A stretch of DNA of 64,000 nucleotides, from NCBI GenBank assembly GCA_002862745.1, contig PKDX01000002.1, forward strand, positions 12,707 through 76,706, read 5' to 3'. The position numbers and the translations under genes are program-made. Below the pieces are notes generated by a model. It did not search any database and had not been told where the DNA came from. It saw nothing but the letters and a program-made list of their open reading frames with translations. Positions within the stretch are counted from its first letter, which is position 1. The number at the start of each line of letters is the position of its first letter. This stretch comes from Bacteroidota bacterium (GTDB lineage: Bacteria > Bacteroidota > Bacteroidia > Chitinophagales > UBA8649). Positions 460-38,762 of the stretch are shown in pieces.

Positions 460-483
460 TGCCAAAAAACTGACATTTTGTCA
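460..483. promoter_or_regulatory. Perfect palindrome TGACA-TTT-TGTCA (471-483) with an upstream TGCCA half-site (460-464); candidate operator
   Basis: Read directly: ttgccaaaaaactgacattttgtcat. It overlaps the -33 TTTG of the miaB promoter, and a related element precedes groES. Confidence 0.6.
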
Positions 484-507
484 TAAACGCAAACGGTCTT
501 ACCTTTG
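477..507 (+). promoter_or_regulatory. Bacteroidota primary-sigma promoter for the miaB operon (TTTG-N19-TACCTTTG)
   Basis: TTTG at 477-480 and TACCTTTG at 500-507 with a 19-nt spacer match the -33/-7 consensus TTTG-N19-21-TAnnTTTG. Confidence 0.8.
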
Positions 508-529: not shown

Positions 530-2002
530 ATGCAAGAGTTAAAAGAAAATAGTCAAGGTCATACTCACAGCCTCCTTTCCGAGGATCGCCAAGGCGAAGT
601 GATTGTTAAAGAGGGTTTGCGCGGTATCCAACCCAATGGTAAAAGCTTCTACATTGAAAGCTATGGATGCCAAATGAATTTCTCTGATAGTGAAATCGTC
701 GCTTCCATCTTATGCGAAAATGGATATGTCTCAACGCCCGACTACAACGAGGCCGACCTTGTTTTGGTCAATACCTGCTCAATTCGTGAGAACGCGGAAC
801 AACGCGTGCGCAATCGCCTCAAAAATTTTCATGTTATTAAGCGACGTAATCCCAACGCATTAATCGGTGTGTTAGGTTGTATGGCAGAACGACTCAAAGA
901 AAAGTTTCTGGAGGAAGAAAAGCTCGTAGATATTGTGGTAGGGCCAGACGCCTATAGACATCTACCGAGTTTAATTACCGAAGCAGAAAGCGGGCAAAAG
1001 GCAGTCAACGTATTGCTGTCTAGAGAAGAAACCTATGCAGATATCAGCCCGGTGCGCCTCTCTAGCAACGGGGTATCTGCCTTTATCTCGATAATGCGTG
1101 GATGCGACAATATGTGCTCTTTCTGCGTCGTGCCCTTTACTCGTGGAAGAGAAAGAAGCCGAGATCCAAAATCCATCGTCGCCGAAGCACAAGACTTGTT
1201 TAACAAGGGGTATCGAGAAGTCACCCTTCTGGGTCAAAATGTAGACTCTTATCGATGGTCGGAAGATCCTACAGTTCGCGGGAAAAAACTCATTGAGTTA
1301 AAGGACACTGACGATGTCTTCAACTTTGCCAATCTTCTCGAAGCCGTCGCGCAAGTTTCGCCGCAACTTCGTGTACGTTTTTCCACCTCACATCCAAAAG
1401 ACATGCTCGATGATGTCTTACACGTGATGGCGAAATACGACAACATCTGTGAATACGTCCATCTGCCTGTGCAAAGCGGTAATTCTGAGGTTTTAGAGCG
1501 TATGAACCGCACCTATGATAGAGCGTGGTACATGAATAGAATTGAGGCGATTCGAAGAATTCTTCCTAACGCTGCGATTTCTACGGATATCATTGCCGGA
1601 TTTTGCGGAGAAACCGAAGAACAACACAAAGAGACCTTGTCCATCATGGAGGAGGTAAAGTACGAGATGGCCTACATGTTCTTTTACTCTGAGCGACCAG
1701 GAACGTTGGCCGCCAAACGATATGAAGATGATATTCCAGAAGAGGTAAAGAAGCGTCGTTTAACCGAGATTATCGATCTCCAAAGAGAGCATTCCCTAGA
1801 GCGCAACAAAGCAGATTTGGGTAAAACATTTGAAGTATTAGTCGAGAAGCCTTCCAAGCGCTCCGAAGATGACCTATGCGGACGCAATAGTCAGAATAAA
1901 ATGATTGTCTTTCCCAAAGGCAACGCTAAAGTAGGAGAATACGTTCAGGTAAAGGTTTCTGACTATAGCCAAGCCATATTAAAAGGAGAAATCGTAGCCT
2001 AA
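530..2002 (+). CDS. miaB: tRNA (N6-isopentenyl adenosine(37)-C2)-methylthiotransferase
   Basis: [12 protein letters not shown]-terminal MTTase domain, radical [15 protein letters not shown] (CxxxCxxC), C-terminal TRAM domain. Confidence 0.96.
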
Positions 2003-3225
2003 TGAATCCCACTTTACAAGGCGTCAAGCAACGATTCGGCATAATTGGAAACTCCCAAGCGCTCAACCATGCTATACAAATTGCAATGCGTGTAGCCCCT
2101 ACAGATTTATCGGTTTTAATCAATGGAGAAAGTGGTGTAGGAAAGGAAGCATTTTCAAAAATCCTTCATCAACTCTCTCCGAGAAAGCACGAAAAATTTA
2201 TTGCGGTAAACTGTGGAGCCATTCCTGAAGGCACGATTGACTCGGAGCTCTTTGGTCATGAAAAAGGTGCCTTTACAGGAGCTCAAGATAAACGCAAAGG
2301 ATACTTTGAAACAGTTAACGGAGGCGCCATTTTTCTCGATGAGATCGGCGAGATGCCTTTGGGAACCCAAGCACGGCTCTTGCGCGTCCTCGAGTCAGGT
2401 GAGTTTATCAAAGTGGGCTCATCTGAAGTCCAGAAGACGAACGTCAGAATCGTTGCTGCAACCAACCGAAATTTGCTAAAAGCAGCAGAACAAGGGAAGT
2501 TTAGAGAAGACTTGTATTACCGATTAAGCACTGTTCCTATTAAGATTCCGGCCCTTCGTGACCGTGGGGATGATATTTTACTGTTGTTTCGAAAGTTTGC
2601 CACTGACTTCGCCGAACGACATCGAAGAAGACCTATTCAACTGAGTGAAGATGCGCAATCCTTACTTCAACGCTATCCATGGCCAGGGAATGTCAGGCAG
2701 CTAAGAAATATGGCGGATCAGCTATCCGTGTTAGCTATTGAGGACATTATTGGCGCTCATGACATTGTTCAACTAATCCCCGATATAAAAGACAACCGAC
2801 TACCGGCATTACGTCAAGAGCAATCTGGTGATAACAGAACGTCCAGCACCAAGGAGGACACGACCCTTCTAGTCAAGATGTTTATCGAGTTGAAGCAGGA
2901 TATTAACGCATTGAAAAAGGTGATTGGTCATACTGATGCTTCGGTTTACCAAGAGGATTTGCCCATAGAAAATCACACCTTTGTACCGAATAAAGAAATG
3001 CAATGGGAGCCTCCAAAAGATGATAGTAAGAATCTCGTTGTGCACTCTAAGGAAGATATCCCAAATGCTGAGGAGATCGAGGACTCTCTTTCCCTGATGG
3101 ATATGGAGAAGCAAATGATAAAAAAGGCTCTAGATAAACATCAGGGACGTAGAAAAAATGCCGCCGAAGAACTTGGAATTTCCGAACGAACGCTTTATCG
3201 AAAAATTAGAGAATACGATATCTAA
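2002..3225 (+). CDS. Sigma54-dependent enhancer-binding protein (AAA+ plus Fis HTH) with no N-terminal sensor or receiver domain
   Basis: Walker A GESGVGKE, intact GAFTGA loop, Walker B FLDEIGE, WPGNVRQL, C-terminal AAEELGISERTLYRK HTH; TAATG coupling to miaB. Confidence 0.93.
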   Translation: MNPTLQGVKQRFGIIGNSQALNHAIQIAMRVAPTDLSVLINGESGVGKEAFSKILHQLSPRKHEKFIAVNCGAIPEGTIDSELFGHEKGAFTGAQDKRKGYFETVNGGAIFLDEIGEMPLGTQARLLRVLESGEFIKVGSSEVQKTNVRIVAATNRNLLKAAEQGKFREDLYYRLSTVPIKIPALRDRGDDILLLFRKFATDFAERHRRRPIQLSEDAQSLLQRYPWPGNVRQLRNMADQLSVLAIEDIIGAHDIVQLIPDIKDNRLPALRQEQSGDNRTSSTKEDTTLLVKMFIELKQDINALKKVIGHTDASVYQEDLPIENHTFVPNKEMQWEPPKDDSKNLVVHSKEDIPNAEEIEDSLSLMDMEKQMIKKALDKHQGRRKNAAEELGISERTLYRKIREYDI

Positions 3226-3731
3226 TGAAGAGGAATTTAGTCATATCCACCCTTGTTCTCTGCGTAGGTTTTATGCTCTCTGGATGTAAGATTTACTCTT
3301 TTACCGGGGCAAATTTTGATCCGAACATCAAATCAATATCTGTTGCATACATATCCAATGATGCAGAAGGTGCCCCAGCAACTGTTGGAGACCTGCTTAC
3401 CGAAGCCCTCAAGCAAAAAATGCTCACGACAAATATTCCACTCCAAGATGGGAATGGAGACCTACATTTCAGGGGAGAGATTATCTCATATCGATATTCA
3501 ATTCAAGCACCAGCTGCTGGTCAAACTTCTGAGCAAAAGAGAATCACCATGTCCATTAGTATCACGAGTGAGAATCGTATCAATCCAGAGGAAAACTGGA
3601 CAAAAACCTTCACGAGATTCATTGACTTTCCAGCCAATGAAGACCTTAATGTAGTGGAAGAACAACTGATTAACGCGCTGAATACCCTCATAGTGGAAGA
3701 TGTCTTCAACAAAAGTTTTGTGAAATGGTAG
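3225..3731 (+). CDS. lptE: LPS assembly lipoprotein LptE family
   Basis: Lipobox MLSGC then KIYSFTGA; size, and the position between the bEBP and secG, fit Bacteroidota LptE. Confidence 0.8.
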   Translation: MKRNLVISTLVLCVGFMLSGCKIYSFTGANFDPNIKSISVAYISNDAEGAPATVGDLLTEALKQKMLTTNIPLQDGNGDLHFRGEIISYRYSIQAPAAGQTSEQKRITMSISITSENRINPEENWTKTFTRFIDFPANEDLNVVEEQLINALNTLIVEDVFNKSFVKW

Positions 3732-4408
3732 TCGATTGTCTTCAGCAGCTTTTTCAGGGAAATCCGTTACCAGAAAAAACCCTAACTGAACTGGAACATT
3801 GGGCCGAACAACATCCCTATCATCTTAGTCCCAGCCTTATTCGCTTGTGGAATGAACGACTAGATAGTCAGCTGGACTATGATGAACGCCAACTGAATCG
3901 ACTTGCTTTTTTCATGGCCGATCGCGGTCAACTTTTCGCCTTGGTTAAAGGAGAAGGTATCCCTACTGAAAACTCAACGGTCATACATGATGAAGAAAAG
4001 GCTACTAAGGAAAATTCTATCGAAGAAAATGAGCCTAGCACACCCCCTATTCCAACCTTTGATTTACAGGAAACGTCGTCATCATCTGACACAGAGATAA
4101 CTTCATTGGGTGACTTTTTAGCCTCGCTCGCTGCTGAGGTTCCTATTCAGTCTCGCCCAGCCTCGACAATGGACGGTGATCTGGAGGCTGTCCTACGCTC
4201 TGAAGATATTCAAGCCATCATCCACCGCTCAAAAATCAAAAAAAAAGAGAATACCCCGAAGGGATTCGTTTCTGAAACTTATGCTACCATTCTTCGAAGC
4301 CAAGGTCGCTATGAGGAAGCTATCGAAGTGTATAAACAGTTGATGTTCGAGAATCCCAAAAAAAAGCGTTTCTTTGCAGACCAAATTGATGAACTTCTGA
4401 AAAAATAA
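3725..4408 (+). CDS. Hypothetical protein with C-terminal TPR
   Basis: C-terminal VSETYATILRSQGRYEEAIEVYKQLMFENPKKKRFFADQI is a TPR-like helix pair; acidic low-complexity middle. Confidence 0.75.
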   Translation: MVVDCLQQLFQGNPLPEKTLTELEHWAEQHPYHLSPSLIRLWNERLDSQLDYDERQLNRLAFFMADRGQLFALVKGEGIPTENSTVIHDEEKATKENSIEENEPSTPPIPTFDLQETSSSSDTEITSLGDFLASLAAEVPIQSRPASTMDGDLEAVLRSEDIQAIIHRSKIKKKENTPKGFVSETYATILRSQGRYEEAIEVYKQLMFENPKKKRFFADQIDELLKK

Positions 4409-4417
4409 GATCGTACA

Positions 4418-4729
4418 ATGTTCACTATCCTTTTGATAATTACCATTCTCGTTAGCTGTTTACTCGGTATCGCCGTACTTGTCCAAAACCCAAAAGGTGG
4501 AGGAATCCAAGCAAGTTTAGGCACAGTTAGTAATCAAATTCTTGGAGCAAGCCGTGCAACGAACTTTATTGAAAAGCTAACATGGTATTTGGCTGGTGCT
4601 TTAGTTGTGCTATCCATTGCCATGACTTCTTCTGTTTCAAGTCCTGAAGTAAACCAAGTAGAGCAGAACAACAACGAATTACAACTTGTAGCTCCACAAG
4701 AAGAAGTTCCCGCACCTCCAGCAAGCTAA
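4418..4729 (+). CDS. secG: Preprotein translocase subunit SecG
   Basis: Two TM segments with VLVQNPKGGG and NFIEKLTW motifs. Confidence 0.92.
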   Translation: MFTILLIITILVSCLLGIAVLVQNPKGGGIQASLGTVSNQILGASRATNFIEKLTWYLAGALVVLSIAMTSSVSSPEVNQVEQNNNELQLVAPQEEVPAPPAS

Positions 4730-4790
4730 AGGGTCATCACGACAGTCTTGCGTCATAGATGATGTTTTTAGGCCTTCTTTAAAGACACTT

Positions 4791-4816
4791 TGCCATACTT
4801 TCTGCCAATTTTTCAG
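4791..4816. promoter_or_regulatory. Candidate activator-binding site upstream of groES: TGCCA (4791-4795) plus C-TGCCA-ATT-TTTCA-G (4802-4816)
   Basis: Same layout (half-site, then a TGnCA-N3-TGnCA-like site 11-12 nt later) as the element at 460-483. Confidence 0.5.
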
Positions 4817-4837: not shown

Positions 4838-4854
4838 TTGGTATGCTATTCGCT
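4838..4854 (+). promoter_or_regulatory. Sigma54 (RpoN)-type -24/-12 promoter of groES-groEL
   Basis: TTGGTATGCTATTCGCT has GG(4840-41)-N10-GC(4852-53). It differs from TGGCACG-N4-TTGCW only by three pyrimidine transitions and lies 28 nt before the ATG. Confidence 0.62.
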
Positions 4855-4881
4855 TAGTAAGGTTCAAAATTTAGACATACT

Positions 4882-5175
4882 ATGAGTTCAATTAATATAA
4901 ATCCACTAGCAGGTAGTAACAACCGTGTGGTCGTTAAGCCTGCAGATGCTGAAGAAAAATCAGCTGGCGGAATCATTATTCCTGATTCAGCAAAAGAAAA
5001 ACCTCAAAAGGGCCATGTAATGGTAGTGAGTGAAAAGGATGATAAAGGCGTAGCACCTGTTGTTAAAAATGGTGATACTGTTCTTTATGGCAAGTACGCA
5101 GGTACTGAAGTGAATCTCGATGGTGAAACGTACATGATCATGCGCGAATCTGATATTCTCGCAATTGTTAACTAA
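4882..5175 (+). CDS. groES: Co-chaperonin GroES
   Basis: [38 protein letters not shown]. Confidence 0.96.
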
Positions 5176-5180
5176 TATAA

Positions 5181-6836
<1,656 letters not shown>

Positions 6837-6887: not shown

Positions 6888-6906
6888 ATGCCCTTATATT
6901 TACAGG

Positions 6907-38071: not shown

Positions 38072-38099
38072 AGCCGAGGATATTCCTCGGCTTTTTTTT
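38072..38099 (+). terminator. Intrinsic terminator
   Basis: AGCCGAGGA-TAT-TCCTCGGCT followed by a T-tract. Confidence 0.88.
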
Positions 38100-38142
38100 G
38101 CCCTTATGTCAGATAGACAAGAGTTTTGGCACAGACATTGAA
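38099..38142 (+). promoter_or_regulatory. Sigma54-type promoter (TGGCAC-N5-TTGA) with upstream TGCCC-TTA-TGTCAG element, before yceI
   Basis: TGGCACAGACATTGAA at 38127-38142 (GG-N10-GA); element at 38099-38112. Confidence 0.55.
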
Positions 38143-38195: not shown

Positions 38196-38762
38196 ATGAA
38201 AAAATATCTCGCTTTAATCCTTACAGTGATTTTATCCTCAAACATTGTACAAGCTCAACAGAGGGTTGAGGTTGATGTTGAAAAAAGTAATGTCGAATGG
38301 CTTGCCAAAAAAGTAGGAGGACAACATGATGGGTTAGTCAGCATTCAAAAGGCCAATATTACATTCAATAGCCAAGGCGAGGTAAGTCAAGCAAATATTG
38401 TAATGGACATGACCAGCATTACCGTTGAAGATTTAAGCGGTGGGGCGAAAAATTCCCTAACCAACCATCTCAAAGATCCCGACTTCTTTAATACCGAAGA
38501 CTATCCAGAAGCTTCCTTTACTGTTAAAGAGGGCAACGGCAAACCAGGAGAGGTTCTAGGCATACTAACCATAAAAGATATTTCCAAAGAATACGCGCTT
38601 CAATACGAGTATAAGGACGGCGAAATCAAAGGAAAATTAGTTATTGACCGCACAGACTTTGATATTATGTATAAATCCAAATCCATCTTAGATGCCAAAG
38701 CTGTGGCTGATGGCTTCATTTATGACGAGTTTACGATTACGTTTACCCTAGTAAGCAAATAG
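38196..38762 (+). CDS. YceI-family periplasmic lipid/polyisoprenoid-binding protein
   Basis: Signal peptide; SNVEWLAKKVGGQHDG, MDMTSI, HLKDPDFFNTEDYPEASF, IDRTDFDI. Confidence 0.9.
   Translation: MKKYLALILTVILSSNIVQAQQRVEVDVEKSNVEWLAKKVGGQHDGLVSIQKANITFNSQGEVSQANIVMDMTSITVEDLSGGAKNSLTNHLKDPDFFNTEDYPEASFTVKEGNGKPGEVLGILTIKDISKEYALQYEYKDGEIKGKLVIDRTDFDIMYKSKSILDAKAVADGFIYDEFTITFTLVSK

Follow-up and report, generated by a model that had tools for sequence, protein, structure and literature searches.

PspF, the regulator of the phage-shock regulon of Escherichia coli, has the same architecture as the bEBP considered here: an AAA+ sigma-54 domain and a C-terminal HTH domain, without an N-terminal sensor. 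Its upstream activating sequences (UAS) overlap its own sigma70 promoter and thereby bring about negative autoregulation, and a partner protein acting in trans governs the activity of PspF. In the case of NtrC (NRI), the sigma-54 enhancer sites at glnAp1 and glnL also repress the sigma70 promoters that they overlap, including that of the regulator's own operon. HsfA from the HsfA/HsfB-lonD system of Myxococcus xanthus provides a precedent for the activation of sigma-54-dependent heat-shock genes, and the sigma32-DnaK and HrcA-CIRCE circuits, which feed chaperone availability back on the regulator, are functional analogues of the circuit proposed below. Heat sensing and chaperone control in Bacteroidota are poorly understood, and to our knowledge no sigma32-type circuit has been described in this phylum. 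An in silico survey (PLoS One 2025, PMC12316311) found, in the part of its text available to us, that predicted sigma-54 promoters are enriched at Bacteroidota chaperone COGs (GroEL/ES, DnaK/J, GrpE, IbpA, HtpG, Clp) in Flavobacteriia, Bacteroidia and Cytophagia. The regulon outlined in that part of the survey matches the sigma-54 promoters found here, and no activator, upstream site or autoregulation is named in it. Our search of the literature for an activator, an upstream site or feedback in the Bacteroidota sigma-54 chaperone regulon returned none, and the miaB-bEBP operon is not mentioned in Francke 2011.

The locus analyzed here lies near one end of a 64,000-nt stretch of DNA (hereafter the window; coordinates without a contig number refer to it), where the gene of a sensor-less bEBP is embedded in an operon that begins with miaB. 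The features of the operon and its promoter are the following:

73-435: SUI1 (Pfam).
471-483, no strand assigned: dyad TGACATTTTGTCA, the genus form of (C)TGNCA-WWN-TGNCA, over the -33 region; proposed bEBP site.
477-480, plus strand: TTTG within the dyad, serving as -33 element in a sigmaA promoter of the Bacteroidota type.
500-507, plus strand: TACCTTTG, the -7 box (TAnnTTTG), 19 nt after TTTG.
530-2002, plus strand: miaB, tRNA methylthiotransferase, operon gene 1 (Pfam UPF0004, Radical_SAM and TRAM).
2002-3225, plus strand: sensor-less bEBP, operon gene 2 (Pfam Sigma54_activat, AAA lid and HTH_8).
3225-3731, plus strand: lptE (Pfam).
3725-4408, plus strand: TPR-like protein (weak Pfam match).
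4418-4729, plus strand: secG, the final operon gene (Pfam).

From miaB to secG, the five reading frames adjoin or overlap one another, as expected of one operon. Analysis of the domains of the bEBP reveals an AAA+ sigma-54 domain (PF00158, residues 14-180, E = 2.3e-68), with the GAFTGA loop and the Walker A motif (GESGVGKE) present in the translation, and a C-terminal Fis-type HTH domain (HTH_8, residues 366-405); Pfam detects no N-terminal sensor domain, and the AAA+ domain begins already at residue 14. With rpoN also present in the source genome (C8:53116), all characters of the class are found together, and the protein is predicted to be competent for action on sigma-54. It reaches none of the NCBIfam equivalog cut-offs: the PspF model (TIGR02974 / NF008622), the only NCBIfam model that aligns with it from end to end, scores 273 vs 443.55 bits and 215 vs 529, respectively, and the NtrC equivalog 326 vs 559 bits. 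The system differs from that of PspF in several other respects, namely the absence of pspA nearby, the location of the gene within a miaB-lptE-secG operon, the proposed targets, which are cytoplasmic chaperones and not membrane-stress genes, and the site, which is a short 13-bp dyad often just 12-14 nt from the -24 element. By analogy, the sites would resemble those of NtrC in acting both as sigma-54 enhancers and as repressors of overlapped promoters, although NtrC possesses a receiver domain and 17-bp sites of the type TGCACC-N5-GGTGCA. HsfA differs in being a response regulator, and control of the HrcA-CIRCE type differs in its regulator, as HrcA is absent from the source genome (no match to PF01628).

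Read directly in the window, the dyad consists of TGACA (471-475), TTT, and TGTCA (479-483). A sequence-only reading of this DNA had placed a palindrome over the TTTG of a TTTG-N19 promoter, and this is confirmed, since 471-483 covers 477-480. The sigmaA consensus of Bacteroidota reportedly comprises TTTG at -33 and TAnnTTTG at -7; the promoter TTTG-N19-TACCTTTG ends 22 nt 5' of miaB, whose ATG is at 530, and has TTTG within the range of ~19-21 nt 5' of TAnnTTTG, close to a gene. TAnnTTTG is itself rarer in the window than in shuffled sequences (30 copies vs 55 expected), as would be expected if stray -7 boxes were selected against. The exact pattern TGACANNNTGTCA occurs once in the window vs 0.08 expected, and at least one copy appears in 8 of 100 shuffles, so that one palindrome in a stretch of 64 kb has no significance of its own. 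Genome-wide, copies of the degenerate form TGNCANNNTGNCA are about as frequent as chance predicts (33 vs ~29 expected), and the same is true of one-mismatch copies in the window (31 vs 28 expected); in the absence of genome-wide enrichment, only context-specific copies are meaningful. What is decisive for the significance of the site is position-specific conservation, not copy number.

The intergenic region 436-529 has no match to an Rfam family and no unusual fold (z = 0.15), which rules out an RNA element or terminator there, and the feature at 471-483 is accordingly taken, from its sequence, to act as DNA and not as RNA. A putative sigma-54 promoter at miaB (CGGTCT-N5-TTGT in the window) was rejected as a chance match, its GG being unconserved in orthologs. 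The metatranscriptome contigs that match the locus are too sparse for start-site mapping. A single record, identical to the window over 522-736, carries a SMART template-switch tail before 522 and places an RNA 5' end, on the strength of this one contig, at 522, i.e. 8 nt before the miaB ATG and 14 nt past the -7 box; this is farther from the box than expected, and we count it against the model. A second contig (1743-2104) crosses the miaB/bEBP junction.

To assess the conservation of the site, miaB loci were taken from 40 relatives in 26 families of the same order and oriented before comparison. An exact TGNCA-N3-TGNCA is present just 5' of the TAnnTTTG box in 26 of the 28 loci where miaB is linked to the bEBP gene, and one further linked locus has a copy with one mismatch. 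The position-wise profile at miaB reads C-TG-[C/A/T]-CA-W-W-N-TG-[T]-CA, while the flanks are unconserved and carry almost no information. A wider sample was obtained by scanning GTDB species genomes with the bEBP protein, which yielded named loci from Chitinophagales, Cytophagales, Saprospiraceae and Sphingobacteriales. Here the exact site precedes miaB in 24 of 27 loci and a one-mismatch copy in the other 3, and the gene order miaB-bEBP-lptE-(TPR)-secG-groES-groEL recurs. Two more orders carry the site at linked loci (G135 and G093). Over the class Bacteroidia, the exact (C)TGNCA-WWN-TGNCA is thus found in 52 of 57 linked loci, with one mismatch in 4 and no site in 1, against a chance expectation of ~0.004 per 300 nt; the commonest form is CTGCCAnnnTGTCA. 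The sequence-only reading would have been refuted by a lack of conservation in relatives with the same gene order, and these counts clearly show the contrary. Its perfect palindrome, in turn, exists in the window, but judged from the alignments the conserved unit is TGNCA-WWN-TGNCA (dyad TGNCAW-N-WTGNCA), in which the middle base of each half varies, and the perfect TGACA/TGTCA form is restricted to this genus. The distance from the end of the site to TAnnTTTG is 15-22 nt in most loci, with a modal range of 15-20 nt and outliers at 10, 8 and 1 nt. The site always falls inside the miaB core promoter, with a gap of 1 to 22 nt to the -7 box.

Loci from Rhodothermales and Ignavibacteria have miaB, the bEBP gene and lptE near each other on the same strand and no site. 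Full-length sensor-less orthologs (~40% identity) were also observed at L137, L141-L153, L159 and L163, in Rhodothermales, Ignavibacteria, Chlorobi, Gemmatimonadota, Marinimicrobia and Krumholzibacteriota, some of them adjoining lptE. None of these loci has an exact site 5' of the operon.

Within the class, presence of the site follows the linkage of miaB to the bEBP gene. In one genome of the same order (G029) the two genes are 147 kb apart, and in three genomes of other orders (G163, G069 and G112) they are found on separate contigs. None of these four genomes has the site at miaB, even with one mismatch allowed, although the four cases may represent just two independent events; the -7 box is still recognisable 5' of miaB in G029 and G163. 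Some 120 nt before miaB in G029 (L010) we observed CTGCCATTACTGCTA, which resembles a decayed site with one extra base and one mismatch. The solitary bEBP genes of the same four genomes have no exact site in front of them either, which makes autoregulation dispensable, i.e. common but not obligatory. As negative autoregulation would require, the site at linked loci overlaps the core promoter from which the regulator's gene is transcribed, and it is missing from miaB where the two genes are apart.

Exact intergenic copies of the motif occur in the 2.06-Mb source genome at three loci only, 5' of miaB, dnaK and htpG, and at the latter two a -24/-12 promoter sits between the site and the ATG. One-mismatch copies precede the -24/-12 promoters of clpB, hsp20 and groES. 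In a promoter scan, clpB has CGCCATAATGGCA followed after 12 nt by TGGAATAGCTTTTGCT, and the Hsp20 gene has two identical copies of CTGTCTTTTTGTCA, 30 nt apart, located 44 and 74 nt before TGGAACATGCTTTGCT. The two groES sites, with gaps of 44 and 24 nt, are in phase with the series seen at other promoters. These regions, together with a similar one in front of a YceI-like gene, are:

4783-4795, no strand assigned: AGACACTTTGCCA, one-mismatch site, 44 nt before the groES -24 element.
4803-4815, no strand assigned: TGCCAATTTTTCA, one-mismatch site, 24 nt before the groES -24 element.
4840-4855, plus strand: TGGTATGCTATTCGCT, sigma-54-type -24/-12 (GG-N10-GC) promoter of groES-groEL.
4882-6836, plus strand: groES (4882-5175) and groEL (5193-6836) (Pfam); proposed targets of the same activator.
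38099-38142, plus strand: TGCCCTTATGTCAGATAGACA, two overlapping one-mismatch sites, then TGGCACAGACATTGAA (38127-38142), of the -24/-12 type.
38196-38762: YceI-like gene, 3' of TGGCACAGACATTGAA.
C3:16977-17100: dnaK motif-promoter region.
C13:20754-20830: htpG motif-promoter region.
C4:15880-15945: clpB motif-promoter region.
C18:14219-14360: hsp20 motif-promoter region.

The YceI-like gene is a possible further member of the regulon. The 9-mer TGCCCTTAT is found twice in the window: the copy at 38099 supplies the first half of one of the one-mismatch sites in front of this sigma-54 promoter, and the copy at 6889 lies outside any full site.

The same arrangement is found in relatives. At dnaK, a TGG[C/A]A-N6-TTG promoter is present in every one of the 24 non-redundant relatives, 38-95 nt 5' of the ATG, and a site with at most one mismatch lies within 130 nt upstream in 22 of them (0.69 expected from shuffles), an exact one in 6 (0.016 expected). 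The -12 element at dnaK contains TTGA or TTGT more commonly than TTGC. At the dnaK, clpB, htpG and groES loci L031-L109, the -12 element of the sigma-54 promoter was likewise observed to be mostly TTTGA or TTTGT and not TTGC. Standard GG-N10-GC scans would hence miss many of these promoters. In four further orders clpB, htpG, dnaK and groES are preceded by the same arrangement, with the exact site often ending 12-14 nt before TGG, and orthologous groES promoters of relatives also have exact sites. For the spacing of site and -24 element in 52 pairs, the Rayleigh test gives R = 0.76 with a period of 10.3-10.5 bp (p ~1e-13, uncorrected for shared ancestry); the preferred gaps are 12, 22-24, 44, 54-57, 64-66 and 74-75 nt, and the commonest are 12-14 nt. 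Such helical phasing argues that the bound protein must face the sigma-54 holoenzyme, as an enhancer-binding protein does, and the dyad is thus found where a UAS is expected, 5' of the sigma-54 promoters of the regulon and kept in relatives. Two features count against it: the gap of 12-14 nt at many heat-shock promoters, which puts the centre of the site at about -45, is unusually short for a bEBP, and the TGNCA halves, 8 bp apart from centre to centre, are close together for an HTH dimer. A genome from another class with a single bEBP (G044) has neither the motif nor the sigma-54 pattern at dnaK, clpB and htpG, which limits the circuit described here to the class Bacteroidia. This connection of the site with a chaperone regulon was absent from the sequence-only reading and is added here.

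The source genome (G000) encodes only two bEBPs, the sensor-less protein of the operon and one of the response-regulator type on another contig (C6:33376-34746). Some good -24/-12 promoters in this genome have no motif (e.g. C18:35564, C24:23074 and C18:25787) and may be targets of the second bEBP. Both types are present in almost every genome of the order, which makes their presence or absence uninformative for telling them apart. Comparison of the HTH recognition helix between lineages with and without the motif gave no discrimination either, as the helix ISERTLYRKI is conserved in both. In the phylum-wide sample, we found one genome that separates the two proteins (G163, 100% complete, 3.1 Mb in 30 contigs): its only PF00158 domain belongs to a full-length ortholog of the operon's bEBP, with 55% identity, and rpoN is present. 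Its clpB is preceded by CTGCCATTTTGTCA, 12 nt and TGGCAAATATTTTGA, its htpG by TGTCAAAATGTCA, 14 nt and TGGCATCTTATTTGC, and its dnaK by a one-mismatch site before TGGCATAGCATTTGA; the motif is the only conserved upstream element of these chaperone promoters. Sigma-54 promoters require a bEBP, and with a single bEBP in this genome the sensor-less protein must be the activator there. Together with the loss of the miaB site from unlinked loci, this points to the operon's own bEBP as the best candidate for binding 471-483. We regard this prediction as likely to be correct; its main supports are this lone single-bEBP genome and the pattern of linkage.

The strongest competing explanation, which we nevertheless consider unlikely, is that the site is bound by another protein, either the response-regulator-type bEBP or a heat-shock repressor that co-regulates the chaperones and the miaB operon. 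Such a role would agree with the presence of both bEBP types in nearly every relative and with the conservation of the ISERTLYRKI helix in distant orthologs of the FCB group that have no motif, a pattern that offers no specific match between protein and DNA. Against the second bEBP, G163 does without it and yet has kept both the motif and the sigma-54 promoters, and the miaB site vanishes once the gene of the sensor-less bEBP is no longer downstream. A repressor fits poorly with sites that are phased 5' of the sigma-54 promoters and do not overlap them, as expected of an activator, and HrcA, as noted above, is missing from the source genome. The motif at sigma-54 heat-shock promoters, the single-bEBP genome and the loss from unlinked loci hence favour the proposal of the sequence-only reading that the operon's bEBP is the binder, with the identity of the protein predicted from these patterns.

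We propose that the 13-bp dyad at 471-483 is a candidate binding site for the sensor-less, PspF-like bEBP of the same operon. At the chaperone genes, its copies, found on a single face of the helix at distances of 12 to ~100 nt 5' of the -24/-12 promoters, would serve as upstream activating sequences, the targets would comprise dnaK, htpG, clpB, hsp20 and groESL, and the bEBP would be the heat-shock/chaperone activator of Bacteroidia. At miaB, counting the TA of the -7 box as -12, the centre of the site is at about -35 in the window and at about -38 to -39 in most relatives, and the site reaches from about -41 to about -29 in the former and from about -45 to about -32 in the latter, so that it covers or abuts the -33 element. 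The bound bEBP would exclude sigmaA-RNA polymerase from this promoter, resulting in negative autoregulation of miaB-bEBP-lptE-TPR-secG, and miaB, lptE, the TPR gene and secG would thereby also be subject to the chaperone regulator.

The bEBP might instead bind the miaB site with an effect other than repression, i.e. by helping sigmaA-RNA polymerase in a class-II-like manner, by using the site as a reservoir, or by acting from it as a distant enhancer of the groES sigma-54 promoter, which is 4.3 kb downstream. At miaB the site is indeed centred at about -35 to -39, close to the value of about -45 for many sigma-54 promoters, and groESL is found downstream of the operon in many orders. We nonetheless judge this improbable: activation through contact would not tolerate a gap to the -7 box that varies between 1 and 22 nt from relative to relative, groES has proximal sites of its own, and no GAFTGA-type bEBP is known to activate holoenzymes of the sigma70 family. 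The position of the site in the miaB core promoter drifts, unlike that of the phased sites at sigma-54 promoters, and steric repression fits this better than position-dependent activation does. Together with the precedents of PspF and NtrC, the latter cited already in the sequence-only reading, this drift leads us to read the site as a negative autoregulatory operator. The remaining alternative, already disfavoured, that no regulator is involved and that the site is merely an extended -33 promoter element (full pattern CTGNCAWWNTGNCA) or a chance palindrome, would agree with the insignificance of the lone copy in the window, with the chance frequency of the degenerate motif genome-wide and with the likeness of the second half, TTGNCA, to a -35 or -33 element, but we hold it to be very improbable, given that the 13-bp pattern is kept across orders of the whole class while its flanks are free to vary, that the same pattern recurs, helically phased, at promoters of the sigma-54 type, on which sigmaA does not act, and that the site is lost at unlinked miaB genes though the -7 box is recognisable in at least G029 and G163.

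The sequence of the site, the extent to which it is conserved, its occurrence together with the bEBP gene, the sharing of the motif with sigma-54 promoters and the helical phasing are observed directly. On these grounds the site very probably functions as a conserved cis-element in the sigma-54 chaperone regulon, whereas the identity of the binder and repression by binding are deduced from the genomic patterns. That the site represses seems reasonably likely. The autoregulation suggested by the sequence-only reading is largely supported, having gained a conserved site in the core promoter of the bEBP operon; its repressive character still follows from position and precedent, and the arrangement is not universal. 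The reading as a whole, in which the dyad would be both operator and UAS of the bEBP, which would activate the chaperone genes and repress its own sigmaA promoter by occlusion, is on balance the one we favour. In its broadest form, to which we would give an even chance, the dyad would be the recognition code of a master heat-shock activator of Bacteroidia that replaces sigma32 and HrcA. This activator would drive dnaK, groESL, htpG, clpB and hsp20 via helically phased proximal sites, and repression of its own miaB-lptE-secG operon would hold it at a fixed level, with its activity presumably set in trans, e.g. through titration by free chaperones.

The site ties together a cis-element, a near-universal gene of a sensor-less activator and a putative feedback loop acting on this gene. 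A further implication is that one promoter, which a regulator of proteostasis can shut, would serve a tRNA-modification enzyme, LptE, involved in LPS export, and SecG of the Sec system. The combination of the site with TGGCA-N6-TTG at a phasing of ~10.4 bp provides a search pattern for the regulon in thousands of Bacteroidia genomes, and the proposed circuit is directly testable in cultured Flavobacteriia, Cytophagia and Chitinophagia.
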